Positions 1,187 to 47,368 of a DNA stretch of 64,000 bases are shown in pieces. Below the pieces are notes generated by a model. It had not been told where the DNA came from. It ran no database searches and was given only the letters and a program-made list of their open reading frames with translations. The position numbers and the translations under genes are program-made. Every line of letters begins with the position of its first letter. Positions within the stretch are counted from its first letter, which is position 1. Origin of the DNA: Patescibacteria group bacterium. GTDB lineage: Bacteria; Patescibacteriota; Minisyncoccia; Phycocordibacterales; UBA9973. The stretch covers positions 36,749 through 100,748 of the forward strand of contig JAZKIP010000008.1 in the NCBI GenBank assembly GCA_040384805.1. Direction: 5' to 3'.

Positions 1187-1190
1187 TCTT

Positions 1191-1622
1191 ATGGACAGAA
1201 AATTTACACAATTTAAAAAAATGGAAAGTGAACTTGAAGAAATTCCACACGTAAAACCAGAAGTTCATTTTAAATTAAACGATATTTCAAAAAGGATTTC
1301 ATCGGGAAAAGAAATTGACAGAAAGGATATCGATTCTTTAGAACTTATATACAGCGAGTTGCAAGATTTAGAAAAAAGCTTAGTAAGTAACCTTGACGAT
1401 TATAGATCAAAAGGAATAGTGCAGAAAGAAGAATTTCTTATTACAATAAATTTTTTCTTAGTCGCAAAACAAAATGGCCCTGAAACTAGCCAGTTACTTA
1501 ATATATTTAAAAATAAAAACTTGAGCGTAGGCGATTGTACTCAGCTAATAGACTCAATTTCTATTCCGGAACATACAAAAATTGTTTTGTTGAATGTATA
1601 TTCAAAAATAATTAGCGAGTAG
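1191..1622 (+). CDS. hypothetical protein
   Basis: ATG at 1191 just after the upstream stop. The ORF track gives an alternative start at 1113 that overlaps the previous gene in another frame. AT-rich, Lys/Glu-rich, no motif. Confidence 0.4.
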   Translation: MDRKFTQFKKMESELEEIPHVKPEVHFKLNDISKRISSGKEIDRKDIDSLELIYSELQDLEKSLVSNLDDYRSKGIVQKEEFLITINFFLVAKQNGPETSQLLNIFKNKNLSVGDCTQLIDSISIPEHTKIVLLNVYSKIISE

Positions 1623-21430: not shown

Positions 21431-22060
21431 CTATTTTAACACATTTTCAATAGCGGATACGAGATCTTTCGGATCGTCTATAATGATTGCAGGGGCGCCT
21501 TTTTGAAGAACTTGCTTGCTTTGGAATCCCCATGTAACGGCAATAGAACGAACGGAACATTCTTTTGCTTCCTTTATATCGCCTAAAGTGTCTGTAATGA
21601 AAATAGAGTTTTCAGGTTGCATACCGTACTTCTCAAGTAGCATTTTAATTTTTACTACTTTACTTTGATCAATATCAGAACCTAATACAACGCTAAAATA
21701 TTCACTAATTCCTTCTCTTTGAAGTATCTGGTTGATCGATGACGTCATTGTTGAAGAAACAATCGCAAGCACATAGGACATGGCAAGACTTTTAACCGAT
21801 TCTTTTAGATCGTCGGTTATTTTTAGTTCTCTGGTAAAAAAATCATATTTTTGAGGAAATTCGGGATGCTCTTCTCTTTGTTCTCCATTCTTCCTGATTG
21901 AATTATGAATATTACCATTGAAAAATCCTTTATATTCTTCAATATCAAGATCGTCGTTTACCTCAGTATTTATTTGATAACAGGAAATGAGCGTATCGAT
22001 CAGTACGCCGTCAAAATCAAACAATACCAGTTTTTTATTTCCCAATTTCATGAACTTCAA
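21431..22060 (-). CDS. HAD-superfamily hydrolase (phosphatase-like)
   Basis: Motif I LFDFDGVLIDT and later HAD motifs (VSST..., ITDTLGDIKEAK). 209 aa. Overlaps the upstream NUDIX gene by 26 bp. Confidence 0.75.
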   Translation of the reverse strand: MKFMKLGNKKLVLFDFDGVLIDTLISCYQINTEVNDDLDIEEYKGFFNGNIHNSIRKNGEQREEHPEFPQKYDFFTRELKITDDLKESVKSLAMSYVLAIVSSTMTSSINQILQREGISEYFSVVLGSDIDQSKVVKIKMLLEKYGMQPENSIFITDTLGDIKEAKECSVRSIAVTWGFQSKQVLQKGAPAIIIDDPKDLVSAIENVLK

Positions 22061-22474
22061 GATATTCTTTTGCTTTTCTTAAAACTTCTTTTCGTCCCTC
22101 GAATCGAAAAATGTCAAGAGCTTCGTCATAAGCGACCCATACATATGTGTTGATTTCGCTTTCCTGAATTGTGACATCCTTGCTTTTCACACATCCGATA
22201 AAGTATTCGTTTGTTTTAAAGCGGGCATTATCCTGACCCGCGTTTATCATATACTCCTCATGGATCGGTTCTGTGTCCAGAAGATCAATCTCTGCAATGC
22301 CTGTTTCCTCTTGTAATTCTCGCAAGGCGGTTTCTTTCACTGTTTCATTCTCTTCAATATGGCCTTTCGGGAAGCTCCATGAGCCCTCAGCATCTTTATG
22401 CTGCAAAAGCAAGAAGTAATTTTCTTCTGCTTCTTGATATACGACAATTACTCCCGCTGCTTTTTCGTTTTTCA

Positions 22475-22478
<4 letters not shown>
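22035..22478 (-). CDS. NUDIX hydrolase
   Basis: Nudix box GHIEENETVKETALRELQEETGI. 147 aa. Start overlaps the ileS stop by 4 bp. Confidence 0.85.
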
Positions 22479-25972
<3,494 letters not shown>

Positions 25973-26454: not shown

Positions 26455-26940
26455 CTATATATTCTCAACCACTTTCTCCCAGAGATAAAGTTGCCAGTCG
26501 ACAGTGATATAAGAAGGGGTTTCGCTTTTCGGAATCCATTCGGCACTATGCTTGGCGGTTTCGGATTGATCGACAAGGTCTCTTTTGTCCGAGACAAGCT
26601 CAAAAAGTAATCCTGTCGCTGCCATCATTCTGTTTTCTTTCTTGTAACTGTTATAAAAAGCCGCCTGTACTTTTCCGATCTCAGCGACATATCGAACATC
26701 GGTATATCCTGTTTCTTCATGTATTTCTCTCTTCCCCGCTTCGACAAGATCGACATCCGTTTCCTCAACGCCGCCGTTTACGAACGTTCTCCATCCGAAC
26801 TCATGCCAGCGCATGCAAAGAACTGCGTCATTCCGCGGATCGTAGACGATAGATAATACCTGCTTTCGCTCGACAATAGGAAGACCGGGAACGATCTTAT
26901 CTACCGGATCTTCGAAATAAGGGATGTCTTCTATGTTCAT
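26455..26940 (-). CDS. NUDIX hydrolase
   Basis: Nudix box GGVEETDVDLVEAGKREIHEETGY. 161 aa. Confidence 0.85.
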   Translation of the reverse strand: MNIEDIPYFEDPVDKIVPGLPIVERKQVLSIVYDPRNDAVLCMRWHEFGWRTFVNGGVEETDVDLVEAGKREIHEETGYTDVRYVAEIGKVQAAFYNSYKKENRMMAATGLLFELVSDKRDLVDQSETAKHSAEWIPKSETPSYITVDWQLYLWEKVVENI

Positions 26941-26943
26941 ATA

Positions 26944-28647
26944 TTACATTTTCTCCGGCGTTTTGATGCCAAGGAGATACAAGCCGTTTTCCATAGTCTG
27001 ATAAAAGGCCTCGACAATGGCTACACGGTACGGCGCATAACTATCCTCAAGGCTTACGATGGTCGTATTGGCATAAAAAGTATTGAAGGCGCTTGCAAGC
27101 TCGGTAAGATATGTAGCGATGTGGTGCGGCTCAAGCGACTCATACGAGTGTGCGACAACTTCCGGGAATTGATAGAGCAATCGCTCAAGTCCGGTAACCT
27201 CTTCGGGTATTTTTAGTAATTCGTAATTAGTAATTAGTAATTTCAGTGTTTTGGCCTTCTTCAAGATCGATGACGCGCGTACGGCGGTGTACTGCAGATA
27301 CGGCCCCGAATCCCCTTCAAACGATATCGACTTCTCGAAATCATAGACGATGTCGGACCCCATCGATGAGCGGAGAATGGAATATTTAAGAGCTGCAACG
27401 CCGACAATGCGGGCGATTTCCTTTTTTTCTTCCTCAGACAATTCTCTTTCCGTCATTTTTTCATAGACAACATCCATTGAGTCATTGATAAGAGATTCAC
27501 CCGTAATGACATTGCCCTTGCGCGAGGCCATTTTCCCCGAAGCGAGGCGCATCATGCCATGGGTTATATGCTTCATACGGGATTCGTAATCTGGATGGAT
27601 AAGAGATACGGCCTTCTGTACGACCTTCATGTATTCTCCCTGCTCGATGGCAGTCGTAATGATGGAAATATCAGGATCTTCTTTTTTAAATTTCGTAACA
27701 GTGAGTCCGACTTCTTTTGTTTCATACGTCGGCAAGCCTTTCGAATTTATGAAAACGCGGGTATGAAGCTTTGAATCATACTTCTCCGCATGGAAAACAA
27801 TTGCTCCGTTCGATTCTTCAAATACAGGGCCAATATTAGTTCTCACGATCTTTTCTCCGATCGGCGCCATTTCGGATTCGAAAAAATAATAGTCGAATTT
27901 GGTGCCGAGAAGCTTATAGATATCTTCAAAAGCATCGAGCGTTGTCCTGCGGCCCCAATCATAAAGGGTAATTATGTTCGCATCGCTTCTTTCATAGATC
28001 TTCTTATTGATTGCATCGATATCTTCTTTCAAGAAAGGATCGGTATCGTATGCATCGCTTCCTTTCGCATACTGCTCACCGATCCATAGAGCGTTTTTGC
28101 CTTCGTATGTCTCGCCTGAATTCACTATTCCCCAGATCGCTTTGGCCACATGCGGACCGACATCGCCCTGATAGTTTGCACGAACGGTTCGTGCGCCTGA
28201 AAATTCGACGATGCGAGAGATTGATTCTCCGATGGCATTACTCATCAAGTGGCCGATATGGAAAGGCTTGAAAGGATTCGGCTGGGTATATTCAACCATT
28301 ACTTTTTTCCCTGCAAGAATTTCATTTTTCCCCCACTCTTCTTTCTGTGCAAGAATATCTTTGACCGAATCAGCGAAAAAATCGCGCGATAGGTAAAAAT
28401 TGATGAATCCGGGTCCTGCAATCTCGATTCTGCTTATTTCTTTCGACGTATCTTTTTGGATTTCCGCCTTGATTTTCTCTGCGAGTTCCCGCGGAGAACT
28501 TGATATTTGTTTTGCATATGCAAGAGCGATATTCGTCGAATAATCGCCGTTGTTCATATCCGCCGGATGCTCAAGCAAGACAGTCCCGGCTTGTATGCCG
28601 AGATTTTCCAATGCTTTCCTGATGTGTTCCTGTAGTTTTTCCTTCAT
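26944..28647 (-). CDS. argS: arginyl-tRNA synthetase
   Basis: N-terminal Arg-tRNA-synthetase N domain, class I core with PFHIGHLMSNAIGES (HIGH) and NYQGDVGPHVAKAI, and a C-terminal DALR anticodon-binding domain. 567 aa. Confidence 0.9.
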   Translation of the reverse strand: MKEKLQEHIRKALENLGIQAGTVLLEHPADMNNGDYSTNIALAYAKQISSSPRELAEKIKAEIQKDTSKEISRIEIAGPGFINFYLSRDFFADSVKDILAQKEEWGKNEILAGKKVMVEYTQPNPFKPFHIGHLMSNAIGESISRIVEFSGARTVRANYQGDVGPHVAKAIWGIVNSGETYEGKNALWIGEQYAKGSDAYDTDPFLKEDIDAINKKIYERSDANIITLYDWGRRTTLDAFEDIYKLLGTKFDYYFFESEMAPIGEKIVRTNIGPVFEESNGAIVFHAEKYDSKLHTRVFINSKGLPTYETKEVGLTVTKFKKEDPDISIITTAIEQGEYMKVVQKAVSLIHPDYESRMKHITHGMMRLASGKMASRKGNVITGESLINDSMDVVYEKMTERELSEEEKKEIARIVGVAALKYSILRSSMGSDIVYDFEKSISFEGDSGPYLQYTAVRASSILKKAKTLKLLITNYELLKIPEEVTGLERLLYQFPEVVAHSYESLEPHHIATYLTELASAFNTFYANTTIVSLEDSYAPYRVAIVEAFYQTMENGLYLLGIKTPEKM

Positions 28648-28674: not shown

Positions 28675-29100
28675 TTACTTCTTCCCTGTGCTTCCCTCTC
28701 TTCCTTCGCCTCGCACAGTTGATGATAATTCGGATACTTCCACAATATCACAGTCTTCGAATCTTTGTATAATCATTTGGGCGATCTTGTGCCCTTTCTC
28801 GATTTTTTGAACTTTATCTGTTGTATTATACAAAGACATGATAAGTTCTCCCCGGAAACAGGAATCAATGACTCCACCCATGACTTTAAGACCCTGATTA
28901 AAAGAAATGCTTGATTTATCCCAGATAAGGCCCACGCATCCTTCGGGAATTTCTATTGCAACTCCCGTATGAACGCGCTCTTGAGACAAAGGCTGAAATA
29001 CCACTTCATCAAGCGCATAAAAATCCATCCCCGCATCCCCGGGGTGGCCTTTTGTCGGCAGTTTCGCATTTTCTTTTAACTTTTTAACTTTGATTTTCAT
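28675..29100 (-). CDS. dut: dUTP diphosphatase (dUTPase)
   Basis: dUTPase motifs GDAGMDF, GGVIDSCFRGE, KIAQMI, RGEGREGSTG. 141 aa. Confidence 0.9.
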   Translation of the reverse strand: MKIKVKKLKENAKLPTKGHPGDAGMDFYALDEVVFQPLSQERVHTGVAIEIPEGCVGLIWDKSSISFNQGLKVMGGVIDSCFRGELIMSLYNTTDKVQKIEKGHKIAQMIIQRFEDCDIVEVSELSSTVRGEGREGSTGKK

Positions 29101-29500
29101 ACTCTTTTATGACTGATATAGCTCTCGTAAATGACGGGAGAAATAATTCTGGCTGTTTTGAATATAAATTCTCCAAGTCAAGCACTCGGATCCATTTTAT
29201 TTCTTCTACCTCGCCTTCCTGGAGAGTAAACTGCGCTTGACTCGATACTTTCGCAAAAAACCATTGGGTGAAATATTCATGAATGCTTGAGACTCTTATT
29301 TTCGGACCGGCAGTAACTGTATCTAACCGCAATCCTATTTCTTCATTTGCTTCCTTTAGGATATTGGATTGATATGTTTCTCCTTCTTCCACGCTCCCGG
29401 CAACTGAAGGACCCCATAGATTCGGGTGATGCTTTTTAATTTTGGAGCGGCGGGCAATCAATACTTCATTCTTCTCGTTAAATACCCACAATGCGGCCAC
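29084..29500 (-). CDS. NUDIX hydrolase
   Basis: Nudix-like box GSVEEGETYQSNILKEANEEIGL (REuxEE with R replaced by K). 138 aa. Overlaps the dut start. Confidence 0.75.
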   Translation of the reverse strand: MAALWVFNEKNEVLIARRSKIKKHHPNLWGPSVAGSVEEGETYQSNILKEANEEIGLRLDTVTAGPKIRVSSIHEYFTQWFFAKVSSQAQFTLQEGEVEEIKWIRVLDLENLYSKQPELFLPSFTRAISVIKEYENQS

Positions 29501-29592
29501 TCTCGTAATTTCCTTTTTCTGATCTCTTTCCTTCCGATCCTTATAGTATTAAGATATTATCTTGTTCATCGACAATTGGAATTCTCATATTT

Positions 29593-30297
29593 CTACTTTA
29601 GCATCTTCTCTACCTTTTTATAAACCTCTTTATGAATATCCTCGCGGGTACACAGCGCATTTTTGGGGGCGCAATCAATCTTTATAAAGTTCTTCTGGGT
29701 CTTGGCAAGCCATATAGCGCTCTTGCGGGAATTCTCTTGAAATGCGACATCTACTTCGTGGACATCTTTTTTTGTACCCGCATAATTGCGCTTAGATACT
29801 GCGTTGCGTTCTTTCATCATGGCAAGACTTACTTTAAGAGGAACGGAAAGATAAAGGACAAGATCCGGCCGCGGAATTTTGAATACCTTATATTCCATTT
29901 CATCGAGCCATTTGATGAAGGAAGCACGCTTGGCCGCATTTTTAATCTTCCCTCCTTGGTGGATCTGATTAGCAGAGACATAACGGTTGGCAAGGACGAT
30001 GTAGCCTTTCTTGAGCCATTCTTCGATCTTTTCTTTTGATTCGAATCGATCGCCGGCGTAGAGTACCGACACAATTTTCGGATGCACATTTATAAAGTTA
30101 TAGTATTGCTCAGTCAGGCAGTGCCCGATGAACTTGCCGAAGAAATTCTTGTAGTATTCAGGGAAATCGACATTCTTGACTGTATAGCCTTCCTTTTTCA
30201 GCCGCTTTGTTAAAAGAGCGACCTGCGTCGCTTTTCCGCTCCCATCCGTGCCGTCAATAACGATCAGTTTTCCAGTAGTAGATTTGCCTTTTTTCAT
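29593..30297 (-). CDS. tmk: thymidylate kinase (dTMP kinase)
   Basis: P-loop IVIDGTDGSGKATQ, DRY-like LANRYVSANQIHQG, and lid region. 234 aa. Confidence 0.85.
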   Translation of the reverse strand: MKKGKSTTGKLIVIDGTDGSGKATQVALLTKRLKKEGYTVKNVDFPEYYKNFFGKFIGHCLTEQYYNFINVHPKIVSVLYAGDRFESKEKIEEWLKKGYIVLANRYVSANQIHQGGKIKNAAKRASFIKWLDEMEYKVFKIPRPDLVLYLSVPLKVSLAMMKERNAVSKRNYAGTKKDVHEVDVAFQENSRKSAIWLAKTQKNFIKIDCAPKNALCTREDIHKEVYKKVEKMLK

Positions 30298-30390
30298 GTG
30301 AATCCATTATAACGAACACCTTGCAAATACACAAAATTCCATATTTTACTTTGCTTTTCCTTTTTGCTAGGATGAGGAAAATTGACTTTT

Positions 30391-30993
30391 ATGATAGATA
30401 TGACAATCTCGACTGTCATCTCAATGACACTAGAAAGTGCAAGAAAAATCTTCGAAAAGAAATGCAACGATTACGGTACATCATGGAGAATTCTTAGGAC
30501 TATCTCAATAGTAGATCAGGTTTTTATCAAGGCTACTAGAATCGAAACAGTATTGAAGAATGGGGTTCAGAAAGTAAATGGCACAGGAGATGATATCGCC
30601 AGCGAATTTCTCGGTATTATCAACTACGGCCTGATAGGCCTTATTCAAAACAAACACAATGAGATGAAACCGGGCGATGCTTCCATGACAACCAATGAGG
30701 CGAAAAGCAATTATGTGCATGAATTCATCCTCTTCAAAGATTACTTTGAAAGTCAAAATCCTCACTATGTAGAAGGAATAGAAAATCTCGCAATAACGGA
30801 CATATCAGATATGCTTGTTGTTAAAATTACGAGAATGAAATCTTTTCACAAAAATTACGAGGAGAGGGCGAAAGATTGCAAGTCAATTGAAAAGCTAACG
30901 CACGAATTCAAAGTGTTGATTTTCGGCGCATTTTTAGACATCATCTTGTGGTCAAGCATTGGCCACACAAAAATCGATAAAGCCGTACAGTGA
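30391..30993 (+). CDS. hypothetical protein embedded in dNTP-metabolism cluster (possibly DUF1599-like)
   Basis: ATG at 30391 with GAGGAAA about 10 nt upstream. The ORF track start at 30382 is TTG. Conserved-looking N-terminal block KKCNDYGTSWRILR...DQVFIKATRIETVL. The DUF1599 assignment is recalled from memory and has not been checked. Confidence 0.45.
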   Translation: MIDMTISTVISMTLESARKIFEKKCNDYGTSWRILRTISIVDQVFIKATRIETVLKNGVQKVNGTGDDIASEFLGIINYGLIGLIQNKHNEMKPGDASMTTNEAKSNYVHEFILFKDYFESQNPHYVEGIENLAITDISDMLVVKITRMKSFHKNYEERAKDCKSIEKLTHEFKVLIFGAFLDIILWSSIGHTKIDKAVQ

Positions 30994-31038
30994 AGAAATT
31001 CTGTACGGCTTTATTTAATAAAATTATTTTTCCATTTC

Positions 31039-31464
31039 TTACCGTACTGCATCATAGTAATTCTTACCAGTTCTATATGATTCGATCGCAAGGCCTGTTT
31101 GTATGAACACAGGATCAGGCAGGTGATCGAGATCATACCACTCCCAGCTTCCAAGCTTTTCGGGTTCAAGGATCTGCGGCTCTCCGCTTTCCCATTCGGC
31201 GACAACGACAATATTCACATAATGCTTCGGAGCGTAGTGCAGAATATTGCCGACATGTAGAAATCGGATATTCTTTATCTCTATACCAGTTTCTTCCATT
31301 ACTTCTCTTCTTGCACAGTCTTCAAACGATTCCATATACTCCAAGTGGCCGCCGGGAAACGCGTATTCACCCACACCATGCGAGGACTTGCGTTTACCCA
31401 TCAAGATCTTTCCTTTCTTGAAGATCATAACTCCCATCCCGACTCGTGGAACTTGATTTTCCAT
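31039..31464 (-). CDS. NUDIX hydrolase
   Basis: Nudix box GGHLEYMESFEDCARREVMEETGI. 141 aa. Confidence 0.85.
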   Translation of the reverse strand: MENQVPRVGMGVMIFKKGKILMGKRKSSHGVGEYAFPGGHLEYMESFEDCARREVMEETGIEIKNIRFLHVGNILHYAPKHYVNIVVVAEWESGEPQILEPEKLGSWEWYDLDHLPDPVFIQTGLAIESYRTGKNYYDAVR

Positions 31465-31465
31465 A

Positions 31466-31924
31466 TTATGAGCTTAACTTTTTTAATGCTTCTCCGGCAT
31501 AAAATCTGATATTAGGCACTAAGTCCATTAGTTCAACTTCTTCTTTAGTCACCCAACGCATATTCGCCTGCTCGTGCGCATTCATAGACTCTCCAAGTAT
31601 ATCAGTTGAGGCTTTGGCAAAGTAAACAAGAATCACATGAGTGTGAATATCATCAACCGTATGGCGAGCTAGATATCGGGGCGCAGCAAGAGGCTTGAAT
31701 CTTTCTTCCTTCTCCCACATTTCCTGTACAGGAATCTCAATATCAAGCCCCGTCTCTTCTTTCACTTCCCGTATAGCCGCCCCCACCGGATCTTCATCAA
31801 GTTCGATATGTCCGCCGATCGAGCACCATATCTTGAACTTGTCATGCATCCGAAGCAGCACTTTGTTCTTATGGACAATGAATACTTCTACGGTAAAATC
31901 AATTTTTTCGTGAATGTGAGGCAT
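31466..31924 (-). CDS. NUDIX hydrolase
   Basis: Nudix box GGHIELDEDPVGAAIREVKEETGL. 152 aa. Confidence 0.8.
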   Translation of the reverse strand: MPHIHEKIDFTVEVFIVHKNKVLLRMHDKFKIWCSIGGHIELDEDPVGAAIREVKEETGLDIEIPVQEMWEKEERFKPLAAPRYLARHTVDDIHTHVILVYFAKASTDILGESMNAHEQANMRWVTKEEVELMDLVPNIRFYAGEALKKLSS

Positions 31925-31934
31925 CTAAAATGTA

Positions 31935-32501
31935 TTATATCAGGAGTTTATTTTTCTCTAAGAAAAGGTCAATTTTCTCGTGAAAACTCGCCAAATCAGA
32001 ATTATTTGAAATCGTATAATCAGCCTGCTCCAAACACTCGAATAAACGTTGCGCATTGGGTGGTGAATTCTCCCTTTTTTCATTTTCTAGAAATTCTTCT
32101 AGAGAACCTGCTTCTCCAAGTTTATTCCGCGCAGTGCTTCTTTGAAATCTTATTTCAGGATCAGCCTCAGTAGTAAGCAGTATAAAATGGGAATTATACT
32201 TAAAATATTCTATAACATCCGGAACTCGTATGCCGGTTATGATTCCCTTATCGCCCTCGATTCTGTCTAAGGCTAATTCTGACAGAAATCCCGATCCTTT
32301 TTCTTTCACCAAATCGCTTCCAAGGGCAATCAGATTTTCACGAATAGGCTCTATTCCTCGCTCTTTCGCAATATCCTTTAAGACTTGGCTTATTTGAAAA
32401 GTGGGTATTTGAAGCCTCTCTGAAATATAGAGAGCTGCGGTATCTTTGCCGGAGCCGATAGTTCCAATAATTCCAATGATTGTTTTTTTGCCTGAGGGCA
32501 T
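31935..32501 (-). CDS. P-loop nucleotide kinase (dephospho-CoA kinase/dNMP kinase-like)
   Basis: Walker A IIGIIGTIGSGKDTAA at the N-terminus. 188 aa, the size of small NMP/dNMP kinases. The CoaE DAD motif is not evident. Confidence 0.5.
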   Translation of the reverse strand: MPSGKKTIIGIIGTIGSGKDTAALYISERLQIPTFQISQVLKDIAKERGIEPIRENLIALGSDLVKEKGSGFLSELALDRIEGDKGIITGIRVPDVIEYFKYNSHFILLTTEADPEIRFQRSTARNKLGEAGSLEEFLENEKRENSPPNAQRLFECLEQADYTISNNSDLASFHEKIDLFLEKNKLLI

Positions 32502-32503
32502 AT

Positions 32504-33238
32504 TTAGTCTTTATGTAAAAAATGATCGATCCCTTCTAAAATATCCTTTAATTCTTCTTCAGTAGTGAACTGCTCTGCTTGTCCTGCTAAATCATCGAAA
32601 TAATGTATAGGAATCTGATACTTGCCTTCTTCTTGGAAAACATTTGCTAGTTTTTTATCGTTATCCTCAAGCAATGCATCGAATGTTTTGTATGTCCGCC
32701 CTTTATTACGTTCTATTATCTTCTCGATCGGCATTTTTTCTCCCTTTTCATCTTCAGTTGCTGCATCTCTTTGTAAAAGCACAAACTGGTTTTTATAATC
32801 AAGAAATGTATCCCAGAATTTCTGAGGCGTATCTATAGTATTATAGAGACTAGATTCCGTGCGGGAAGAAAAATCAGCTACCTCTTTCATGATTTCTGCT
32901 AATTTTTCCACTGACTCAACACGAATTATCTTATCAAGGAGCTCATTGTATTCTTTTATAACTGTCTGAATCTTTCTCTGGGAAAGCAATTTTTGATCAA
33001 ATGTCCTGCCTTGATGCTTCAGATATTCAAGAAAATGAAAGAATTTATGTCGCTGAAATTCCTTGAGATTTTCATCATTCCTAATATCCTTAAACCCAAC
33101 AAGCTGATTATTGGCGTTTGTAAAAGCGTTGACGAATTGATCATAGTCTTGAATAAAAGGCTGTTCCACATGATTAGTGGAATCTTCTATTTTCTCAAGT
33201 TGTGAATCAGGGCTACGATAAAATCGTATTTCTTTCAT
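32504..33238 (-). CDS. hypothetical protein
   Basis: 244 aa, acidic and helix-rich, no recognisable motif. Directly upstream of the kinase gene on the same strand. Confidence 0.4.
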   Translation of the reverse strand: MKEIRFYRSPDSQLEKIEDSTNHVEQPFIQDYDQFVNAFTNANNQLVGFKDIRNDENLKEFQRHKFFHFLEYLKHQGRTFDQKLLSQRKIQTVIKEYNELLDKIIRVESVEKLAEIMKEVADFSSRTESSLYNTIDTPQKFWDTFLDYKNQFVLLQRDAATEDEKGEKMPIEKIIERNKGRTYKTFDALLEDNDKKLANVFQEEGKYQIPIHYFDDLAGQAEQFTTEEELKDILEGIDHFLHKD

Positions 33239-33299
33239 AAGACCTATATTATACTCTTAATATGTATAGTCTGCTAAAACGTCCGATTTTAAGCAGTAT

Positions 33300-33692
33300 T
33301 TATACTAATTTAAGCGCTTCTTTTACATACAGATCAACTCCCCCTAGGTTTTTAATATCATCAAGAGCAACCCATGTATATTCATCATGTTCGTCGCTTA
33401 ATTTTATCTCACCTTGAGCTTTTCCTATATATGTTAATCGCACGACATGTTTGTCCTCTTTCAGAATATCCTGAGCTGAAATAAACTCTGGTTCACCTTC
33501 AAGCTCGAGTCCTGTTTCCTCCATAACTTCCCTTTTCAGATTCTCAAGCAATGAGACGCCTATATCAATTCGCCCGCCTGGAATATCCCACTGCGTTCCA
33601 ACCTCGGGATATTTTTCTTTCGAACGCTCAAGCAACAGGTACTCGCCTTTTTCGTTCCGCAACAAAATTTTAACGCCGACTTGGAGATTCAT
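33300..33692 (-). CDS. NUDIX hydrolase
   Basis: Nudix box GGRIDIGVSLLENLKREVMEETGL. 130 aa. Confidence 0.85.
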   Translation of the reverse strand: MNLQVGVKILLRNEKGEYLLLERSKEKYPEVGTQWDIPGGRIDIGVSLLENLKREVMEETGLELEGEPEFISAQDILKEDKHVVRLTYIGKAQGEIKLSDEHDEYTWVALDDIKNLGGVDLYVKEALKLV

Positions 33693-33820
33693 AATTATTT
33701 AGTTTCGAAAAATTTTTTCTTTAAAACTCAGTGAGTATTCGCATTTCTGCTTGATTCCTTTTTAAATACTCCATCTTCTCTGAATCAGTCAGTTTTAAAA
33801 TTCATAATATGTATCAAGCT

Positions 33821-35077
33821 TTACACAAAAACTGCAGGTACAGGGTGAGTATGAGCGAGAGCTTTTACTTTAGCTTTGATCTCAGCTTTCTTACCTTGGT
33901 CATCCTTGTTCTTAAGCGTTTCAATGAGAAGACGCGCAACCTCTTTGCATTCTTCTTCTTTGAATCCGCGTGTGGTGATGGCAGGAGTACCGAAACGAAT
34001 ACCTGACGGATCAAGCGGCTTGCGGGTATCCCCTGCGATCGAGTTCATATTAAGGGTGATGCCGACTTCGTCGAGAACTGTCTGAGCTTCCTTTCCGGTC
34101 ACTCCGAGCGATCCGTAGACATCGGCAAGAATAAGATGATTGTCGGTTCCTCCGCCTATCATGCGGATATTATTCTCTTCCATGACTTCCGCCATAGCTT
34201 TCGCATTTTTAAGGACTTGCTCTGCATATTCCTTGTAAGCCGGAGTGAGCGCCTCGCCGAAGGCGATGGCTTTGGCAGCGATGGTGTGCATATGAGGGCC
34301 GCCTTGGATACCGGGGAAAATAGCTTTGTCGATCTTCTTTGCGATTTCTTCGCTCTCGCGTGTTAGGATCATTCCTCCTCGCGGGCCGCGGAGGGTCTTA
34401 TGCGTCGTCGTCGTAATGATATCGAATCCGTCATCAAAAGGATTGCGGAGAACTTTAGCTGCGATGAGCCCTGCAATATGCGCCATGTCAGCCATTGTGA
34501 TCGCCCCCACTTCCTTGGCAATCTCGACGAATTTCTTGTAATCAAGCGTACGCGAATACGCGGAAAATCCGGCAAGGATGATTTTCGGCTTTTTTTCAAG
34601 AGCTACCTGCCGCAAATCTTCGTAGTCGATCTCCCCTGTTTCAGCATCCTTCATTTTGTAGCCGACGAAATTATATATCTTGGCAGGCAAGGTCATCGGG
34701 TGGCCATGAGTCAGATGTCCGCCATGGGAAAGATCCATGCCGAGGACCGTGTCGCCCGGCTCAAGGAGCGCGGCATAGACAGCCAGATTGGCAGGAGCTC
34801 CCGAGTGCGGCTGAACGTTTGCGAATTTAGCATCAAATAGCGTGCATGCACGATCGATCGCGATGCGCTCGACTTGATCGGTAAAATCCTGCCCGCCGTA
34901 ATAACGGCGGCCGGGATAGCCTTCGGAGTATTTATTCGTAAGAACAGAGCCGTTCGCTTCCCGAACAGCAAGTGATACATAGTTTTCAGATGGGATAAGC
35001 TCAAGACCGTCTTCTTCCCTTTTCGTCTCGCCCATGATCGCATCCCATATCTCCTTGTCTTGTTTCTCTATATACAT
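33821..35077 (-). CDS. glyA: serine hydroxymethyltransferase
   Basis: [26 protein letters not shown], the PLP-lysine region [14 protein letters not shown], and overall SHMT colinearity. 418 aa. Confidence 0.95.
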
Positions 35078-35094
35078 ATGAGCATTTTAGCATG

Positions 35095-35122
35095 TTGAAC
35101 AAGAAAGGGAAAACTGTATAAT
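35095..35122 (+). promoter_or_regulatory. putative sigma70-type promoter for thyX (TTGAAC-N16-TGTATAAT), likely leaderless transcript
   Basis: TTGAAC at 35095-35100 and an extended -10 TGTATAAT at 35115-35122. The thyX ATG at 35130 is only 7 nt after the -10 element. Confidence 0.4.
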
Positions 35123-35129
35123 AAGCAGT

Positions 35130-36485
35130 ATGGCAAGCAACACTATTGAGGATCTCAAGCATACCAAAGTAGCAATCAATGGCGGCGGGTGCGTTATTGT
35201 TCTTGATACAGGATCGGTTATAGGCCCGGAATCCTCGGCAATGCTTCAAGCTCTTCATTCACGTTCAACAAACGGGCTTGAGGGGCATCTCAAAATTCTG
35301 GCCCAGAAAGGTTCAGAGAACTTCATGAAAAACTTTTATGTCGGGTATGGGCACAAGTCGATTGGTGATTGCGGTACGGCATCGCTTTTCATTGAAGGAG
35401 TCTCGATGCTTGTCGCGAAGGCAATCCAAGATTGGCCGCTTTATTCCGGTCAGGAATCATCAACACGGTATGTCGATTTCAAAGTGCAGCCGTTTAAGAA
35501 TCCGTCTCTTTCCGAGGAAGGAAATCTGATTCTCGAGGCGTGGAGAGGATTTTATACGGATTCATTCGATCAAACAGTTAGTTATCTGAAAACTCAATTC
35601 CCGATAAATGAAGGAGAGTCCGAATCTATATATATAAAAGCAATAAACGCCCGGGCATTTGACATATTACGCGGATTTTTGCCAGCTGGCGCAGTTACAA
35701 ATCTCGCTTGGTCAACAAATCTCCGTCAAGCTGCCGATAAGCTTCTCACTCTTCGCCATCATCCCCTGTCAGAAGTCCGGGAAACAGCTAATGCGATAGA
35801 AGCGGCCCTCATTGAGGCATTTCCAAATTCATTCGGGCATAAACGATATGAATCAACTGAGGAATATGACGAATATTGCATGACAAATGATTATTACTAT
35901 CACAAGCCTGATTGTCCGGAATTCGAAATGACTTCAAATTCAATCGATACAAATCTCTTGCCGAAAGAAATACTGACAAGACGGCCCGCAAAAACCGAAT
36001 TGCCGAAACATTTAGGAGAAGCGGGTGTTCTTCAATTCGAATTTTTGTTAGATTTTGGATCATTTCGCGATATCCAACGTCATCGCGCCGTCATCCAAAG
36101 AATGCCGCTTCTTACGACGGAACTTGGATTCGAAGAATGGTATATCGGCGAACTTCCAGAGGCGATACGTGAAAAAGCACGAATCTTTCTGAAAAAACAG
36201 GAAGAGAGGATACGCGCGCTCCCGATTACGAAAGAAGAAAAGCAATATTATACAGCAATGGGTTATAAGATATCTAACCGTATGACAGGCAACTTGCCTG
36301 CCTTGGTATATTTGGCAGAACTTCGCGCAACGCGCTTTGTACACCCTACTCTCCGGAAAAGAGCAAAGCAGCTCGCCGATATTTTATCTGAAACATTCGG
36401 ACCAAACGGGCTTGTTATGCACTTGGATGAAGAAATTGACCGATTTGATATCAAGCGCGGAGAGCATGATATTGTACTGAAATAA
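35130..36485 (+). CDS. thyX: flavin-dependent thymidylate synthase ThyX-like, tandem-duplicated (two Thy1 modules in one chain)
   Basis: Half 1: GHKSIGDCGTASLFIEGVSMLVAKAIQDW...YSGQESSTRYV and NLRQAADKLLTLRHHPLSEVRETANAI. Half 2: FEFLLDFGSFRDIQRHRAVIQRM and LPALVYLAELRATRFVHPTLRKRAKQLADIL. Both follow the ThyX block order. Only half 2 keeps the RHR signature. Confidence 0.7.
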   Translation: MASNTIEDLKHTKVAINGGGCVIVLDTGSVIGPESSAMLQALHSRSTNGLEGHLKILAQKGSENFMKNFYVGYGHKSIGDCGTASLFIEGVSMLVAKAIQDWPLYSGQESSTRYVDFKVQPFKNPSLSEEGNLILEAWRGFYTDSFDQTVSYLKTQFPINEGESESIYIKAINARAFDILRGFLPAGAVTNLAWSTNLRQAADKLLTLRHHPLSEVRETANAIEAALIEAFPNSFGHKRYESTEEYDEYCMTNDYYYHKPDCPEFEMTSNSIDTNLLPKEILTRRPAKTELPKHLGEAGVLQFEFLLDFGSFRDIQRHRAVIQRMPLLTTELGFEEWYIGELPEAIREKARIFLKKQEERIRALPITKEEKQYYTAMGYKISNRMTGNLPALVYLAELRATRFVHPTLRKRAKQLADILSETFGPNGLVMHLDEEIDRFDIKRGEHDIVLK

Positions 36486-36570
36486 ATAATTAAAGATTAA
36501 ATTAGTTAGATCTAAACAATTTTAACGATCGTTTAGATTGTTTAGATAACAGAAAGGATATGATTCATTC

Positions 36571-37056
36571 ATGGCCCATTATGATCAAAATTATTCCTTT
36601 CAGGATTTCCTGATTGCTTTTCTCTTAAGCGGAAGGAGCTCGAAACGGTTCTTTCAGATTCTTCGCGAGCAGGAATGTAAAAAGAGAGCAAGAGCAACCG
36701 TTCAATCAACTCTTACAAGACTAAAAAACAAAAACTTTGTAATAAGAGACAGAGATGGATGGAGAGCAACTAAAGCCGGTGCTTCCTATTACAAGAGAAA
36801 AACTCTTTTGTCTTTCCTTGAATCGCCGTTTATAAAATCCTCCCCGCGGAATATCCTTATTGCGTTTGATATTCCAGAAAAAAGAAAGCATGTCCGTCAC
36901 TGGCTAAGGAATCAGTTAAAAATATATGGTTATACAATGATTCAAAAAAGTCTGTGGCAAGGTCCAGGACCGATCCCGGATAATTTTAGAAAAAGAATTA
37001 AGATGCTTTCACTTTCAAAAAATATAAAAATATTCAGACTTGGTGCAGCACGCTAA
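36571..37056 (+). CDS. PaaX-family-like transcriptional regulator (wHTH + Cas2-like middle domain)
   Basis: N-terminal wHTH TVQSTLTRLKNKNFVIRDRDGW, then ILIAFDIPEKRKHVRHWLRNQLKIYGYTMIQKSLWQGP, which matches the PaaX pattern W..vvfdvPE..R..R..LR..L...GFG.L..GvWvsP. 161 aa. Confidence 0.55.
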   Translation: MAHYDQNYSFQDFLIAFLLSGRSSKRFFQILREQECKKRARATVQSTLTRLKNKNFVIRDRDGWRATKAGASYYKRKTLLSFLESPFIKSSPRNILIAFDIPEKRKHVRHWLRNQLKIYGYTMIQKSLWQGPGPIPDNFRKRIKMLSLSKNIKIFRLGAAR

Positions 37057-37118
37057 ATGTTTACAATTTGAGCGATCGTTATTTTTGTTTACATTGGGAA
37101 ACTGAGGAGGGATTTGAT

Positions 37119-37631
37119 ATGATAGGAAATATGATTTTGTCTCTTATTGCAGCTATAGGGAAAAATGATGAACTTGGTAAGGACAACAAGCTCCTCTGGG
37201 ACATGCCGGCGGACATGAGGCATTTTCGGGAAACGACGACGGGTCATCCTGTCATTATGGGGCGCAAAACATTCGAATCCATTGGCCGCCCTCTTCCTAA
37301 CAGGCGCAATATTGTCATTACGCGCGATGACTCATATTCGCATGAAGGAGTCGAAGTCGTTCATTCGCTCGACGAAGCGGTAGCCTTTTTTGCCGATTCG
37401 GAAGAAGAAGTTTTCTGTTTAGGCGGCGGAGAGATATTCAGACAGGCGATCGATAAAGCCGATCGCCTTTATATCACCCGTATTGAAAGTGGTTTTGATG
37501 CCGATGTTTTCTTTCCGACAATCAGTGACGATATATGGAAGGAAATATCGCGCGAAGAACATGCAAGTGATGAGAGGAATCCCTTTCCATATGCATTCTT
37601 GTTGTATGACAAGATTGACAAAAACATCTAA
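37119..37631 (+). CDS. folA: dihydrofolate reductase
   Basis: ILSLIAAIGKNDELGKDNKLLWDMPADMRHFRETTTGHPVIMGRKTFESIGRPLPNRRNIVITR: canonical DHFR. ATG at 37119 with GAGGAGG 8 nt upstream. The ORF track gave 37068. Confidence 0.85.
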   Translation: MIGNMILSLIAAIGKNDELGKDNKLLWDMPADMRHFRETTTGHPVIMGRKTFESIGRPLPNRRNIVITRDDSYSHEGVEVVHSLDEAVAFFADSEEEVFCLGGGEIFRQAIDKADRLYITRIESGFDADVFFPTISDDIWKEISREEHASDERNPFPYAFLLYDKIDKNI

Positions 37632-37648
37632 TATGCGAAACTCATAAC

Positions 37649-38185
37649 ATGATTCTTTCAGACACGAAAATTTTGGAACATATCGAAAAAGGCGATATCG
37701 TCATTACCCCCTTTGATCCTAAAAATATGGGAGGCAATTCCTATGACGTGCATTTAAGCAAATACTTCGCTCAATACATCGACAGCGAGATCGATGCGAA
37801 GAAGCATAACCAGGTAAAACATTTTGAAATCCCCGACGAGGGATTCGTCCTCATGCCGGGAGAACTCTATCTTGCTTCAACTCTTGAATATACCGAATCG
37901 CACATCCATGTGCCCTTTCTTGAAGGCAAGTCGTCAACAGGCAGGCTTGGCGTTGATATTCACGCGACAGCGGGAAAGGGAGATGTCGGCTTCTGCGGTT
38001 ATTGGACGCTTGAAATATCGACCAGCAAACCCGTCCGTATTTATCCGAACATGCCGATCGGTCAGCTGATTTATTACGTCGTTGAGGGCCCTGTTGAGCG
38101 GCTCTATCATAAAAAAGAAAGCGCAAAATACAGTTATCAGGACAAACTTCCGAAAGAATCCATGATGTGGAAAAATCTTCAATAA
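37649..38185 (+). CDS. dcd: dCTP deaminase
   Basis: MILSDTKILEHIEKGDIVITPFDP...SYDVHLSKYF...GFCGYWTLEI, the Dcd/dUTPase-fold family. 178 aa. Confidence 0.9.
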   Translation: MILSDTKILEHIEKGDIVITPFDPKNMGGNSYDVHLSKYFAQYIDSEIDAKKHNQVKHFEIPDEGFVLMPGELYLASTLEYTESHIHVPFLEGKSSTGRLGVDIHATAGKGDVGFCGYWTLEISTSKPVRIYPNMPIGQLIYYVVEGPVERLYHKKESAKYSYQDKLPKESMMWKNLQ

Positions 38186-39197: not shown

Positions 39198-39978
39198 TTA
39201 TGATGCGAAAAAGCCTTCCGCTTTTAATTTATTATACTGGCTCTCGATCTTATCTTTCGTATACGGGAGGATAGAGAAAAGGGTGCGCTTGGTAATTTTA
39301 TTATTCTGTATATATGCTTTGATGATAGCTCCGCGAACCTGGCGGAGAGATCCTTCAAATGCGCTTTGCTTGGCGTAATGCGCGCTTGTGCGGCTCGGAT
39401 TAGGAAAAGTTTTCTTGAGCATGGCCCCATAATCCATAAGCGCATTGTACCACTCTCGCGGATTTTTATGATCATTGTATTTTTCGATAAACGGCATGAG
39501 CGACGCGTCGGATACTTTCTTCTTGCCGGGGAAAAAGAAATAGATAAAGACCGTCCGGATATTCGTCTCGATCATAGAGACAGGCTCATTATATGCGAAT
39601 GCCACAAGTGCCGATGCGGTATAAGGACCGAGGCCGGGCAATCTCAAAAGCTCATAGCGCTCTTTCGGGAATTTTCCCTTATAGTGATCAACGATAATCC
39701 GCGCCGCTTTATGCAGATTCAATGCGCGGCGATTATATCCGAGTCCCTGCCAGACTGACAAGACATCTTTGACAGATGCAGCGGCAAGGAGTGAGACACT
39801 AGGGAACTTTTTCAGGAACTCGGCATATTTGGGCATGACCCGGGCGCTCCCCGTCTGTTGAAGCATAAGTTCAGAAACAAGTATTTTATACGGATCGCGT
39901 GTCGTGCGCCACGGAAGTGGCCTTTTTTCGGCTTCATAGTGATCATATATTTTTTTCTGGAAGGCTTTTATCGTCATC
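39198..39978 (-). CDS. HhH-GPD base-excision DNA glycosylase, MutY/Nth-like, lacking the 4Fe-4S cysteine cluster
   Basis: KRPLPWRTTRDPYKILVSELMLQQT (MutY N-terminal signature) and HhH LPGLGPYTASALVAFAY. The C-terminal region WYNALMDYGAMLKKTFPNPSRTSAHYAKQSAF aligns to the FeS loop but has no Cys. Start placed at the internal ATG 39978 (MTIKAF), which overlaps the upstream stop. Confidence 0.7.
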
Positions 39979-40591
39979 GCAGGACAAAAAAACCGAGTAT
40001 CATCGCAGTAAAGTTGAGAATCGTATGAGACGCCGATATGAGAATAAGATTCGGATAGCGGTAGTACATCCATGCAAAGCCGATTCCTCCGATAAATGTA
40101 AACGGCAGAACGAATAGAGAATGAGAATAAATAACATGAATAAGGGCAAAAAGAATGGCGTTGAGGATAATGATCGCGTATGGGTTCGCAAAAGCCATTC
40201 CTAAGAGGCGCATCAGAATGCCGCGAAAAACAATTTCCTGAAGAACACTCACGGGTATGAAAAGAAGAAGAAATCTTTTATTTTCCCACCACTCGAGAAA
40301 CGGCTCGTGGGGGACGATATGGGCAAGCCATACTGAAAATGCGATGCCGCCTGCCGTAAAAAGGGCATAGGGGATGATATCTTTGAGCAAGTCACGCCGT
40401 ATACCGAGATCCTCATACGTCCATCGAGCCCGCCGCGTAATGCCGTATAAAAGCAAGGCGATGCCAGCGAGCATAACGATACGGAATTCGGGCGGAATAA
40501 CTCCGAAATACAAAAGAAGTACGGGAACAATATACAGATACACTATTTGAAGCAGAATAAGCTCTTTATTGCGGGGGTGTGATGTATCCAC
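39974..40591 (-). CDS. CPBP-family intramembrane metalloprotease (CAAX protease/Abi-like)
   Basis: Multi-TM, with QEIVFRG (EExxxR-like), FALIHV (FxxxH) and HTILNF motifs. 205 aa. Confidence 0.7.
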   Translation of the reverse strand: MDTSHPRNKELILLQIVYLYIVPVLLLYFGVIPPEFRIVMLAGIALLLYGITRRARWTYEDLGIRRDLLKDIIPYALFTAGGIAFSVWLAHIVPHEPFLEWWENKRFLLLFIPVSVLQEIVFRGILMRLLGMAFANPYAIIILNAILFALIHVIYSHSLFVLPFTFIGGIGFAWMYYRYPNLILISASHTILNFTAMILGFFVLR

Positions 40592-46382: not shown

Positions 46383-46904
46383 TTATTGGGCCATGCCGGG
46401 ATTAATTACATTATAATATTCAGGCGGGGTTGGCAGTATGCGTATTAATTTGGCCTCGACTTGGCCTTCTGTATTCGGTGAACCAATGACAACGATAAAG
46501 CTATCGACGGTCAAATCATCCTTCGTCGCATTTTCCCTGAACTTGCGAATATCGGTATTCTCCGTGATACGGATAATCTTTTCAGTCTCATCTTTATCTT
46601 CGACGATCAAGGTTGGGTATTCGACTTTCACAATTTTTCCGATAGCGCCATGGGCATTGGGGAAATTCTCAGGCATCGAAACGATCATCATGCGGCCGCG
46701 CTCGGCGGGACCGAAATTACGGACATAATTATCATGCCATGCTCTTCCGTACGAGGCTTTGCGAAATCCGACCATGACGCCCGCTTGAAAAATGGCGCTT
46801 GTTATAAGAAGAATGCAGAAGACAGAGATAATGATTTTAAAAGTTTTCGATCGAACCGCTTGTGTAAGCGTGTCGGGGGTCTTGGTATCTGTATCATGAT
46901 TCAT
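46383..46904 (-). CDS. hypothetical membrane protein
   Basis: Single TM (IIISVFCILLITSAIFQAGVMVGF). 173 aa. No motif. Confidence 0.4.
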   Translation of the reverse strand: MNHDTDTKTPDTLTQAVRSKTFKIIISVFCILLITSAIFQAGVMVGFRKASYGRAWHDNYVRNFGPAERGRMMIVSMPENFPNAHGAIGKIVKVEYPTLIVEDKDETEKIIRITENTDIRKFRENATKDDLTVDSFIVVIGSPNTEGQVEAKLIRILPTPPEYYNVINPGMAQ

Positions 46905-46930
46905 ATGTGATGTATTTTATATAATAATTA

Positions 46931-47368
46931 TTATGCCGCTCGTAACGATCCCCTCCAGCCGGATATGGTGCGCCTGCCGAAAATAAGGATAAGCAGAAGC
47001 GATCCGAGACACAGAACCAAAGTTGTGGCCGGCAAAGCATCGACAAGAGAAAAGAGAAACTCCTTCCAATACAGTGTCACTGCCTGCGTGTCGGAAAAGA
47101 GAAGCGACATATACTGATAAAACCCTGTTTGGCTAAATTGCGATGTCAGGCTCTCTATGATAAGTATTGAAAAACCGAGAGACAGGAGAGTTGCGCCCAG
47201 ATTTATCGAGCGGTTGATGACTGTAAGCTTCTTCTGTCGCGATACGATGCGGAAAAGGATATGATCTGAAAGCCCGGCATCGGGATAATAAAGAGGCTCT
47301 TTCAACGCTATCTCCAGTTTTTCTTCCATACTGTTGTTATATACGGGGGGCATATGATTTTGGTGCAA
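46931..47368 (-). CDS. putative anti-sigma factor (membrane protein downstream of ECF sigma)
   Basis: The start overlaps the sigma gene stop. Two hydrophobic segments. The call rests on position relative to the ECF sigma gene only. Confidence 0.4.
   Translation of the reverse strand: MHQNHMPPVYNNSMEEKLEIALKEPLYYPDAGLSDHILFRIVSRQKKLTVINRSINLGATLLSLGFSILIIESLTSQFSQTGFYQYMSLLFSDTQAVTLYWKEFLFSLVDALPATTLVLCLGSLLLILIFGRRTISGWRGSLRAA

Follow-up and report, generated by a model that had tools for sequence, protein, structure and literature searches.

We analyzed a 64-kb window, that is, the whole 64,000-nucleotide stretch of contig JAZKIP010000008.1 (assembly GCA_040384805.1) from a Patescibacteria group bacterium, in which a gene cluster at positions 28675–38185 encodes six enzymes of the thymidylate pathway. 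Families were assigned by Pfam and NCBIfam scans of the open reading frames (ORFs) of the window, covering nearly all plausible ORFs of at least 120 aa, and the enzyme activities in the cluster are read from these families and from their context. The six enzymes are dUTPase (dut), thymidylate kinase (tmk), serine hydroxymethyltransferase (SHMT, glyA), a long-form flavin-dependent thymidylate synthase (ThyX), dihydrofolate reductase (DHFR, folA), and dCTP deaminase (dcd). Six enzymes of the same pathway in 16 consecutive genes are far beyond chance. Among them lie four NUDIX hydrolase genes and genes for a P-loop kinase-like protein, a DUF1599 protein, a lineage-specific protein of 244 aa, and a small protein with a Cas2-like (PaaX_M) domain (Table 1). 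An earlier note on this DNA, made from the letters and ORFs alone, had named the genes of the cluster, and all of those named are present at, or a few codons from, the places where it had put them, as judged from the ORF list, Pfam, and NCBIfam. The family assignments also agree with the route that it drew, leading from dCTP through dUTP, dUMP, and dTMP to dTDP with folate support from SHMT and DHFR.

Table 1. Genes of the thymidylate cluster and its left border, with positions in the 64-kb window
Feature	Position	Strand	Family evidence and remarks
Two further NUDIX genes just upstream of the cluster	22035-22478 and 26455-26940		
Arginyl-tRNA synthetase (ArgRS)	26944..28647	-	Full-length by homology; syntenic anchor of the cluster
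dUTPase (dut)	28675..29100	-	PF00692, E 7e-27; TIGR00576, 123.5 bits (cut-off 102.6)
NUDIX hydrolase 1	29084..29500	-	PF00293, E 3e-18; Nudix box KE..EE
Thymidylate kinase (tmk)	29593..30297	-	PF02223, E 3e-19, 70 bits; TIGR00041, 80.4 bits (just below cut-off 83.25)
DUF1599 protein ("nucleotide modification associated domain 1"), 189 aa	30424..30993	+	PF07659, E 1e-24
NUDIX hydrolase 2	31039..31464	-	PF00293, E 1e-21; intact Nudix box; 84% identical orthologue in L003
NUDIX hydrolase 3	31466..31924	-	PF00293, E 1e-14; intact Nudix box; orthologues in L003, L014, L018, L023
P-loop NMP/dNMP-kinase-like protein	31935..32501	-	AAA_18, E 8e-9
Lineage-specific protein, 244 aa	32504..33238	-	No Pfam, NCBIfam, or PHROG match
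NUDIX hydrolase 4	33300..33692	-	PF00293, E 4e-20; 70% identical orthologue in L003
Serine hydroxymethyltransferase (glyA, SHMT)	33821..35077	-	PF00464, E 2e-156; NF000586, 580 bits
Long-form flavin-dependent thymidylate synthase ThyX, 451 aa	35130..36485	+	Pfam Thy1, 62.9 bits
Small winged helix-turn-helix (wHTH) and Cas2-like (PaaX_M) protein, 161 aa	36571..37056	+	PF20803, E 7e-12
Dihydrofolate reductase (folA)	37119..37631	+	PF00186, E 2e-61, 207 bits
dCTP deaminase (dcd)	37649..38185	+	PF22769, E 1e-37; TIGR02274, 121.8 bits (cut-off 92.8)

Measured against curated thresholds, dut, dcd, and SHMT pass in NCBIfam, DHFR and tmk pass in Pfam, and ThyX passes in Pfam only; by its TIGR02274 match, the dcd product is the housekeeping trimeric dCTP deaminase. 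The start of folA was called from locus L001, rather than at the TTG at 37068. The SHMT and thyX genes are divergent and 52 bp apart (35078–35129). A TTGAAC-16-TATAAT match ends 8 nt 5' of the thyX ATG and would mean a near-leaderless mRNA; we gave it no weight, and a promoter scan of the window was not above chance (25 found versus 22 expected from shuffled sequence).

The cluster belongs to a gene arrangement that is widespread among the relatives of this bacterium. Homologues of ThyX number more than 4228, with lengths of approximately 451 aa and identities of 69–86% among the top 120; those that are named carry the labels Patescibacteria, Paceibacterota, or Nomurabacteria. At 50% identity, the family forms 1931 clusters with E-values of ≤1e-3 and 492 with E-values of ≤1e-30. 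The protein occurs in at least 580 GTDB species from many patescibacterial classes and is under strong purifying selection there. The 80 best matches come from Paceibacterota, Nomura-, Kaiser-, Moranii-, Komeili-, Uhr-, Magasanik-, Buchanan-, Yonath-, Lloyd-, Colwell-, and Liptonbacteria, and the few of these 80 genomes with other labels are probably mis-binned. When the 80 best species-level relatives (one genome per GTDB species) were searched with phmmer within 10 kb of thyX, linkage of pathway genes to thyX recurred in most of them: tmk was found in 51 of the 80 loci, the P-loop kinase in 29, dut in 28, dcd in 25, SHMT in 24, ArgRS in 22, isoleucyl-tRNA synthetase (IleRS) in 12, and a NUDIX gene of any kind in eight; neither DUF1599 nor the 244-aa protein was found in any. 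Typically, the genes run IleRS-ArgRS-(SHMT, dut, tmk) opposite thyX-dcd, with the two arms facing each other, and in Moraniibacteriota they run kinase-thyX-tmk-dut. The thyX-dcd pair is conserved in loci L003–L008 and others, and relatives with a ThyX approximately 73% identical to ours carry this pair amid ribosomal-protein genes. ArgRS adjoins dut in L003, L009, and L097, and both flanks of the window's cluster, ArgRS/IleRS on one side and HtrA/HhH-GPD/Rce1/S9 peptidase on the other, are collinear in L003 and L097. NUDIX-rich versions of the cluster occur in the nearest relatives (L003, L014, L018, and L023); the L003 cluster also has genes for a nucleoside deoxyribosyltransferase, a CYTH protein, and a purine nucleoside phosphorylase/UDP phosphorylase, which underline the salvage flavor of the locus. 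Because this clustering is widely conserved in patescibacterial relatives, its core is a dTTP operon conserved among Patescibacteria, of which the window holds a lineage-specific expansion.

One close relative, locus L097 (JGI 3300075561, contig Ga0633663_0000059), carries the same frame with a different thymidylate synthase. Its SHMT, DHFR, ArgRS, tmk, and HhH-GPD products are 89%, 78%, 75%, 74%, and 68% identical, respectively, to those of the window. The left arm of L097 runs HAD-NUDIX-IleRS-kinase-ArgRS-dut-tmk-DUF1599(+)-cytochrome b5-SHMT, and the facing arm runs thyA-folA-MazG-like-dCMP deaminase-HtrA-HhH-GPD-Rce1-S9 peptidase. Positions 10562–12841 of L097 therefore hold thyA-folA-MazG-like-dCMP deaminase where the window has thyX-paaX_M-folA-dcd, the flanks correspond gene for gene, and folA is common to both. 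The exchange of thyA and dCMP deaminase for thyX (plus the PaaX_M gene) and dcd is a non-orthologous displacement in situ, and it argues strongly for plain dTMP synthesis as the role of the locus.

The thymidylate synthase of the window is itself of an unusual build. Its Thy1 match (PF02511; cut-off 24.8 bits) covers residues 56–233 only, and a single-sequence search of the PDB found no match. An AlphaFold2 (AF2) model, based, like the conservation analysis below, on 103 diverse homologues, had a mean predicted confidence (pLDDT) of 96. In a Foldseek search of the PDB with this model, all 37 matches at E-values of ≤0.001 were ThyX chains (M. tuberculosis, C. glutamicum, T. maritima, PBCV-1, H. 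pylori, and T. thermophilus), each aligned over approximately half of the model, with TM-scores of approximately 0.64 per target and 0.36 per query, and no solved structure contained both halves together. The family profile aligned the N-terminal half (N-half) with residues 63–229 of M. tuberculosis (Mtb) ThyX, and hhalign gave a probability of 96.8% (E-value, 3e-10) for the N-half against the Mtb and C. glutamicum enzymes. The sequence match of the C-terminal half (C-half) was weak (E-value of 0.011 against the same two enzymes and 0.0055 against the N-half), and a profile of the C-half only found no ThyX among PDB sequences; its motifs nevertheless lie nearly in register, RHR on RHR, and the order of secondary-structure elements repeats in the AF2 model. 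The homology of the C-half rests mainly on predicted structure. Taken together, the model, the Foldseek matches, and the profile alignments support the tandem fusion that had been proposed from the sequence, with a C-half that is probably homologous to ThyX.

The motifs of the canonical enzyme are split between the two halves, and a contiguous RHRxxS...SxRY motif is not present in either domain. Mtb H69 corresponds to H75 of the N-half and was not mapped in the C-half. The RHR motif (Mtb R95-H96-R97) is lost from the N-half, where D101-W102-P103 stand in its place, and is R317-H318-R319 in the C-half, with both arginines invariant and the histidine kept in 92 of the 103 homologues. Mtb Q103, S105, R107, and Y108 correspond to E109, S111, R113, and Y114 of the N-half, all invariant or nearly so, and the C-half has no Ser/Arg loop after its RHR. 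Mtb R172 is matched by R181 in the N-half (96 of 103) and by Y373 in the C-half; Mtb R199 falls in a deletion of the N-half and is matched by the invariant R399 of the C-half; and Mtb R209 is matched by R217 (through the N-versus-C alignment) and R409. The spacing of R399 and R409 equals that of Mtb R199 and R209, but the two are one residue off in a low-confidence alignment. The invariant residues of the family are S111, R113, R317, R319, R399, and R443, with R181 nearly so, and every canonical dUMP- or FAD-contacting residue type is invariant in one half or the other. We read the protein as a single-chain pseudo-dimer whose halves have probably degenerated in complementary ways: the E/S/R/Y loop for dUMP binding is kept in the N-half together with the Arg172-type arginine (Mtb numbering), and the RHR for FAD binding is kept in the C-half together with the Arg199-type arginine. 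In canonical ThyX, three subunits contribute to the active site (PMC5954106). Because the degeneration appears to be complementary, a dimer of fused chains could rebuild the likeness of the canonical tetramer, probably with fewer complete active sites.

The DUF1599 gene lies between tmk and SHMT or dut in the window, L009, and L097, with thyX or thyA nearby. The earlier note had left this ORF as an unknown (30391–30993) and suggested a DUF1599 search, which identified it: PF07659 scores 86.8 bits against a cut-off of 25, in an ORF that opens at 30382 and has its likely start at 30424. Its 233 homologues are approximately 180 aa long and occur mostly on Bacteroidota chromosomes. DUF1599 contains an internal duplication (KDYGTSWR..., then NHDYGEAWR...); in the protein of the window, the second of these repeats has degenerated (D114H, G116V, and the W119 and R120 positions lost). 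The AF2 model is all-helical (pLDDT of 78.8) and had no significant match in the PDB by Foldseek, nor did the profile match any PDB sequence; a search of BFVD with the same model returned a phage DUF1599 protein as its only match (E-value, 1.3e-3). An identity as a MazG-like, all-alpha NTP pyrophosphohydrolase was considered and is not supported, since hhalign found no similarity to a MazG-like neighbor of thyX. In three Bacteroidota loci, DUF1599 is divergently adjacent to folP, the gene for dihydropteroate synthase (L010/L011, 5048–6531; L012, 7103–8552; L099, 6966–8543), and in L099 it is additionally near folD and ndk. Because it stands beside folP in Bacteroidota and near thyA or thyX here, DUF1599 suggests a folate or thymidylate accessory role, not one in DNA modification. 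The 244-aa protein has only two homologues, 43% and 38% identical, one of which lies between SHMT and tmk in L009, and a hidden Markov model built from the three sequences found nothing further in 92 loci; it is a real, fast-evolving gene. A weak PADLOC match of this protein to Cas8a (E-value, 1e-4) was dismissed as noise.

The remaining genes of the cluster appear to be accessory. The RE..EE core of the Nudix box is kept in the NUDIX proteins starting at 26455, 31039, 31466, and 33300, and the one at 29084 has KE..EE (five read). NUDIX hydrolase 3 has its best NCBIfam match to a NudB-like family, at 41 bits against a cut-off of 103, and the others give partial, sub-threshold matches to NudB, MutT, NudI, RppH, and isopentenyl diphosphate isomerase; substrate preferences, which the earlier note had expected to come from comparison with characterized family members, could not be read from matches that all fall well below their cut-offs. 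These hydrolases may act in sanitation of the nucleotide pool or in conversion of dNTP to dNMP. The P-loop protein matches phrog_139, a phage dNMP kinase family (E-value, 2e-14), and SSO1041/AdkA-like PDB structures (E-value, 1e-4), and a homologue stands directly beside thyX in many relatives, typically Moraniibacteriota; our best guess is a (d)NMP kinase, possibly one for pyrimidines. What had been called a PaaX-family regulator does have the PaaX_M/Cas2-like domain, together with a weak Penicillinase_R wHTH match (E-value, 0.005), but at 161 aa it is not a full PaaX (approximately 300 aa), and no PaaX C-terminal domain was found in it. A homologue (44% identical) lies inside the L003 cluster, and the protein is plausibly a local regulator.

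The gene identities, the chromosomal context, the conserved synteny, and the displacement of thyX by thyA are the observations that carry our interpretation: with good confidence, the region is a vertically inherited housekeeping locus for dTTP synthesis on the chromosome of a Paceibacteria-type member of the Patescibacteria. Flux through it would run from dCTP to dUTP by Dcd, from dUTP to dUMP by Dut, from dUMP to dTMP by the long-form ThyX with methylene-tetrahydrofolate supplied by SHMT, and from dTMP to dTDP by Tmk. DHFR would most likely reduce salvaged folate or dihydrofolate and would not be needed to recycle the ThyX product. The four NUDIX proteins, the dNMP-kinase-like protein, DUF1599, the 244-aa protein, and the wHTH/Cas2-like protein would be salvage, pool-sanitizing, and regulatory accessories that accreted on the core operon in an organism dependent on scavenged nucleotides.

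Several observations weigh against this interpretation, or against parts of it. ThyX scores only 28.4 bits on the TIGR02170 equivalog against a cut-off of 87.9, although that model was built on short-form ThyX enzymes; we found no biochemistry or structure of a long-form ThyX in the literature, none has been characterized, and we infer the dTMP synthase activity of the 451-aa protein. DUF1599 is not a core component, given its absence from the thyX neighborhood in all 80 sampled species, and neither it nor the 244-aa protein received an assignable fold or function in the family and fold searches. None of the NUDIX proteins reaches any NCBIfam equivalog cut-off. Finally, GC content is 0.37–0.41 at 30001–34000, where DUF1599, NUDIX genes, the kinase, and the 244-aa ORF lie, versus approximately 0.46 elsewhere, and the accessory genes could be later acquisitions. 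GC is lower still (0.34) over positions 1–2000, where the window begins.

A stronger form of the same interpretation, which we offer only tentatively, is that the long-form ThyX of Patescibacteria and viruses is an obligate single-chain pseudo-heterodimer and that DUF1599 is an unrecognized accessory of folate-dependent pyrimidine metabolism. If this were so, the enzyme would have only half as many active sites as the canonical tetramer and might be regulated differently, and in this lineage, DUF1599 may act on scavenged, possibly damaged or modified, deoxynucleotides in concert with the NUDIX proteins and the 244-aa protein.

The least improbable of the alternatives, although an unlikely one, goes further than a suggestion of the earlier note: that the cluster makes a non-canonical, deoxyuridine- or deoxycytidine-derived pyrimidine or a hypermodified base, with ThyX as a hydroxymethylase or an alternative methylase and with DUF1599, the kinase, and the NUDIX proteins processing the modified nucleotide. 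The Pfam name of DUF1599 and its best viral fold match to a phage protein of that name speak for it, as do the score of ThyX below the equivalog cut-off and the presence of a dNMP-kinase-like gene with many NUDIX genes. ThyX-fold enzymes with other substrates also exist (polyoxin PolB). However, the ThyX that had been taken for a divergent paralog is the standard patescibacterial form, 70–86% identical to hundreds of homologues, held by purifying selection, and often placed amid ribosomal or translation genes; its dUMP- and FAD-contacting residue types are all kept in one half or the other; L097 has an ordinary thyA in exactly the same place with DUF1599 retained; and in Bacteroidota, DUF1599 pairs with folP rather than with modification genes. 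Furthermore, the families that define hypermodification did not appear in the window scans: among the ORFs scanned, there was no ThyA-like hydroxymethylase, no glycosyl- or aminoacyl-transferase, no 5-hydroxymethyldeoxyuridine DNA kinase, and no TET/JBP (5mYOX/TET) enzyme. The same note had named what would speak against its idea, namely, a canonical ThyX, a gene order not conserved in relatives, and NUDIX and unknown genes of housekeeping families; the ThyX is indeed the canonical form of its lineage, the gene order is conserved, and the NUDIX proteins and two unknowns did not resolve to defined housekeeping families.

It is less probable still that the cluster is a phage-derived or horizontally acquired island of nucleotide metabolism. 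Long-form ThyX does occur in viruses: at least 102 IMG/VR contigs (L100–L179 among them) encode it at full length, 30–48% identical to the ThyX of the window, many of these contigs are larger than 100 kb (100–360 kb) and include jumbo phages, some are giant-virus metagenome-assembled genomes, and a PHROG family also matches the protein. The lower GC at 30–34 kb points the same way, as does the patchy distribution of the accessory NUDIX, DUF1599, and 244-aa protein genes. Yet, the viral proteins are at most 48% identical, as against 70–86% for the cellular ones, and the viral neighborhoods differ: within 8 kb of thyX in 80 IMG/VR loci (L100–L179), a NUDIX gene occurred in 13, dcd in 12, and dut and tmk in only four each, and SHMT, DHFR, the kinase, and DUF1599 occurred in none. 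The density of pathway genes had been thought phage-like and unusual for cells, but the IleRS-ArgRS-dut/tmk/SHMT block facing thyX-dcd is conserved across Patescibacteria, and both flanks are collinear in L003 and L097. The check for a flanking integrase was negative: Pfam and NCBIfam scans of the ORFs found no integrase, transposase, or phage structural gene in the 64-kb window, and a tRNA scan and an Rfam scan of it were both empty. The genomic setting is an ordinary small-genome chromosome of the Paceibacteria type, with cellular genes throughout (SSB, ribosomal protein S6, TatD, methionyl-tRNA synthetase, a class II aminoacyl-tRNA synthetase, RecO, IleRS, an HtrA-like protease, a MutY-like glycosylase, an Rce1-like protease, an S9 peptidase, MacB/ABC transporters, RNase J, MgsA, and a P-type ATPase).

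The least probable alternative, a dNTP-depleting anti-phage system formed by the kinase, dcd, and the NUDIX proteins, draws on matches of the kinase to the PADLOC dCTPase model (E-value, 4e-17) and to the NCBIfam anti-phage dCTP deaminase (E-value, 4e-9; 36 bits against a cut-off of 400) and of the NUDIX proteins to the candidate defense family PDC-S07, but the PADLOC match covers the kinase domain only (profile positions 153–330 of 630) with no cytidine-deaminase domain fused to it, the dcd product is the housekeeping form, thyX and tmk have the kinase as a conserved neighbor both in Moraniibacteriota and in other classes, and the NUDIX matches are generic.

Other genes of the window have features of their own. 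The 1165-aa IleRS at 22475–25972(-) carries a His_Phos_1 domain (PF00300; E-value, 2e-25) inserted at residues 506–666 within its catalytic domain; IleRS genes with a histidine-phosphatase insert also occur in L009 (14329–17850) and L097 (843–4349), and NUDIX and HAD genes follow each of them. The MutY-like HhH-GPD glycosylase at 39198–40073(-) covers approximately the N-terminal 190 positions only of mutY models (TIGR01084, 177 bits; cut-off 286); its C-terminal NUDIX-like domain for recognition of 8-oxoguanine may be missing, and stand-alone NUDIX genes are plentiful nearby. A 614-aa ORF at 7837–9681(-) matches APP_N, the amyloid A4 N-terminal heparin-binding domain (PF02177; E-value, 1.2e-10), which is known from the amyloid precursor protein of animals and whose match to a bacterial ORF is unexpected. 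ORFs of 630, 338, 169, 173, and 145 aa (17845–19737(-), 170–1622(+), and 46383–47368(-) among them) had no Pfam match at E-values of ≤1e-4.

Patescibacteria are ultra-small, host-dependent bacteria that are thought to live on scavenged nucleotides. As a housekeeping locus for dTTP synthesis, the compact and conserved operon described here marks a step that these bacteria still perform themselves, and it offers a conserved gene order within which the replacement of thyA and thyX by one another can be seen directly. There is no new kind of system here; the locus is mildly interesting for its duplicated ThyX with split motifs, its linkage to DUF1599, and its clean swap of thyA and thyX. Across a whole bacterial superphylum, and in some giant viruses, the prevailing thymidylate synthase appears to be the duplicated ThyX; its architecture is already in the literature, and its presence in at least 580 species shows that it is standard in Patescibacteria. 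The ThyX of Chlamydia may be a long form as well. ThyX is an antimicrobial target. The repeated occurrence of DUF1599 beside genes of folate and thymidylate metabolism offers a concrete starting point for work on this widespread family.

Among known systems, the phage modules for thymidine or cytidine hypermodification share with the window an enzyme of the thymidylate synthase superfamily and a kinase, and some phages have DUF1599; their deoxyuridine/deoxycytidine hydroxymethylase of the ThyA fold, 5-hydroxymethyldeoxyuridine DNA kinase, aGPT-Pplase, and transferases have no counterpart in the window. The folP-DUF1599 pair of Bacteroidota shows the same two-repeat architecture, with 38–47% identity to the window DUF1599, but its partner belongs to the pterin branch, whereas the partners here are tmk, SHMT, and thyX or thyA. 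Compared with the canonical ThyX of T. maritima (TM0449), M. tuberculosis (Rv2754c), and PBCV-1 (A674R), the window protein has the same fold and the common Thy1 domain, and the conserved histidine, RHR, E/QxSxRY, and two arginine positions are all present; its linkage to dut, tmk, dcd, and glyA fits the canonical reaction. Unlike those enzymes of approximately 220–250 aa, it places two ThyX-like halves in one chain of 451 aa, with RHR confined to the C-half and the SxRY loop to the N-half. A ThyX of Chloroflexi has been described that "contains a domain duplication" and "has not been characterized" (Valas & Bourne 2009, PMC3224940), and its architecture appears to be the same. In relation to thyA-folA operons, the window is atypical in pairing thyX with folA. 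ThyX regenerates tetrahydrofolate, and DHFR is not required for its recycling; folA lay near thyX in only 3 of the 80 relatives. Even in organisms with ThyX, a certain level of DHFR activity remains necessary to synthesize or salvage folate (PMC1971073). We explain the odd combination by the retention of folA in a frame in which thyA and thyX were swapped. It is well documented that ThyA and ThyX displace each other non-orthologously (PMC3224940; PMC5954106), and here, such a displacement is seen within a single syntenic frame.

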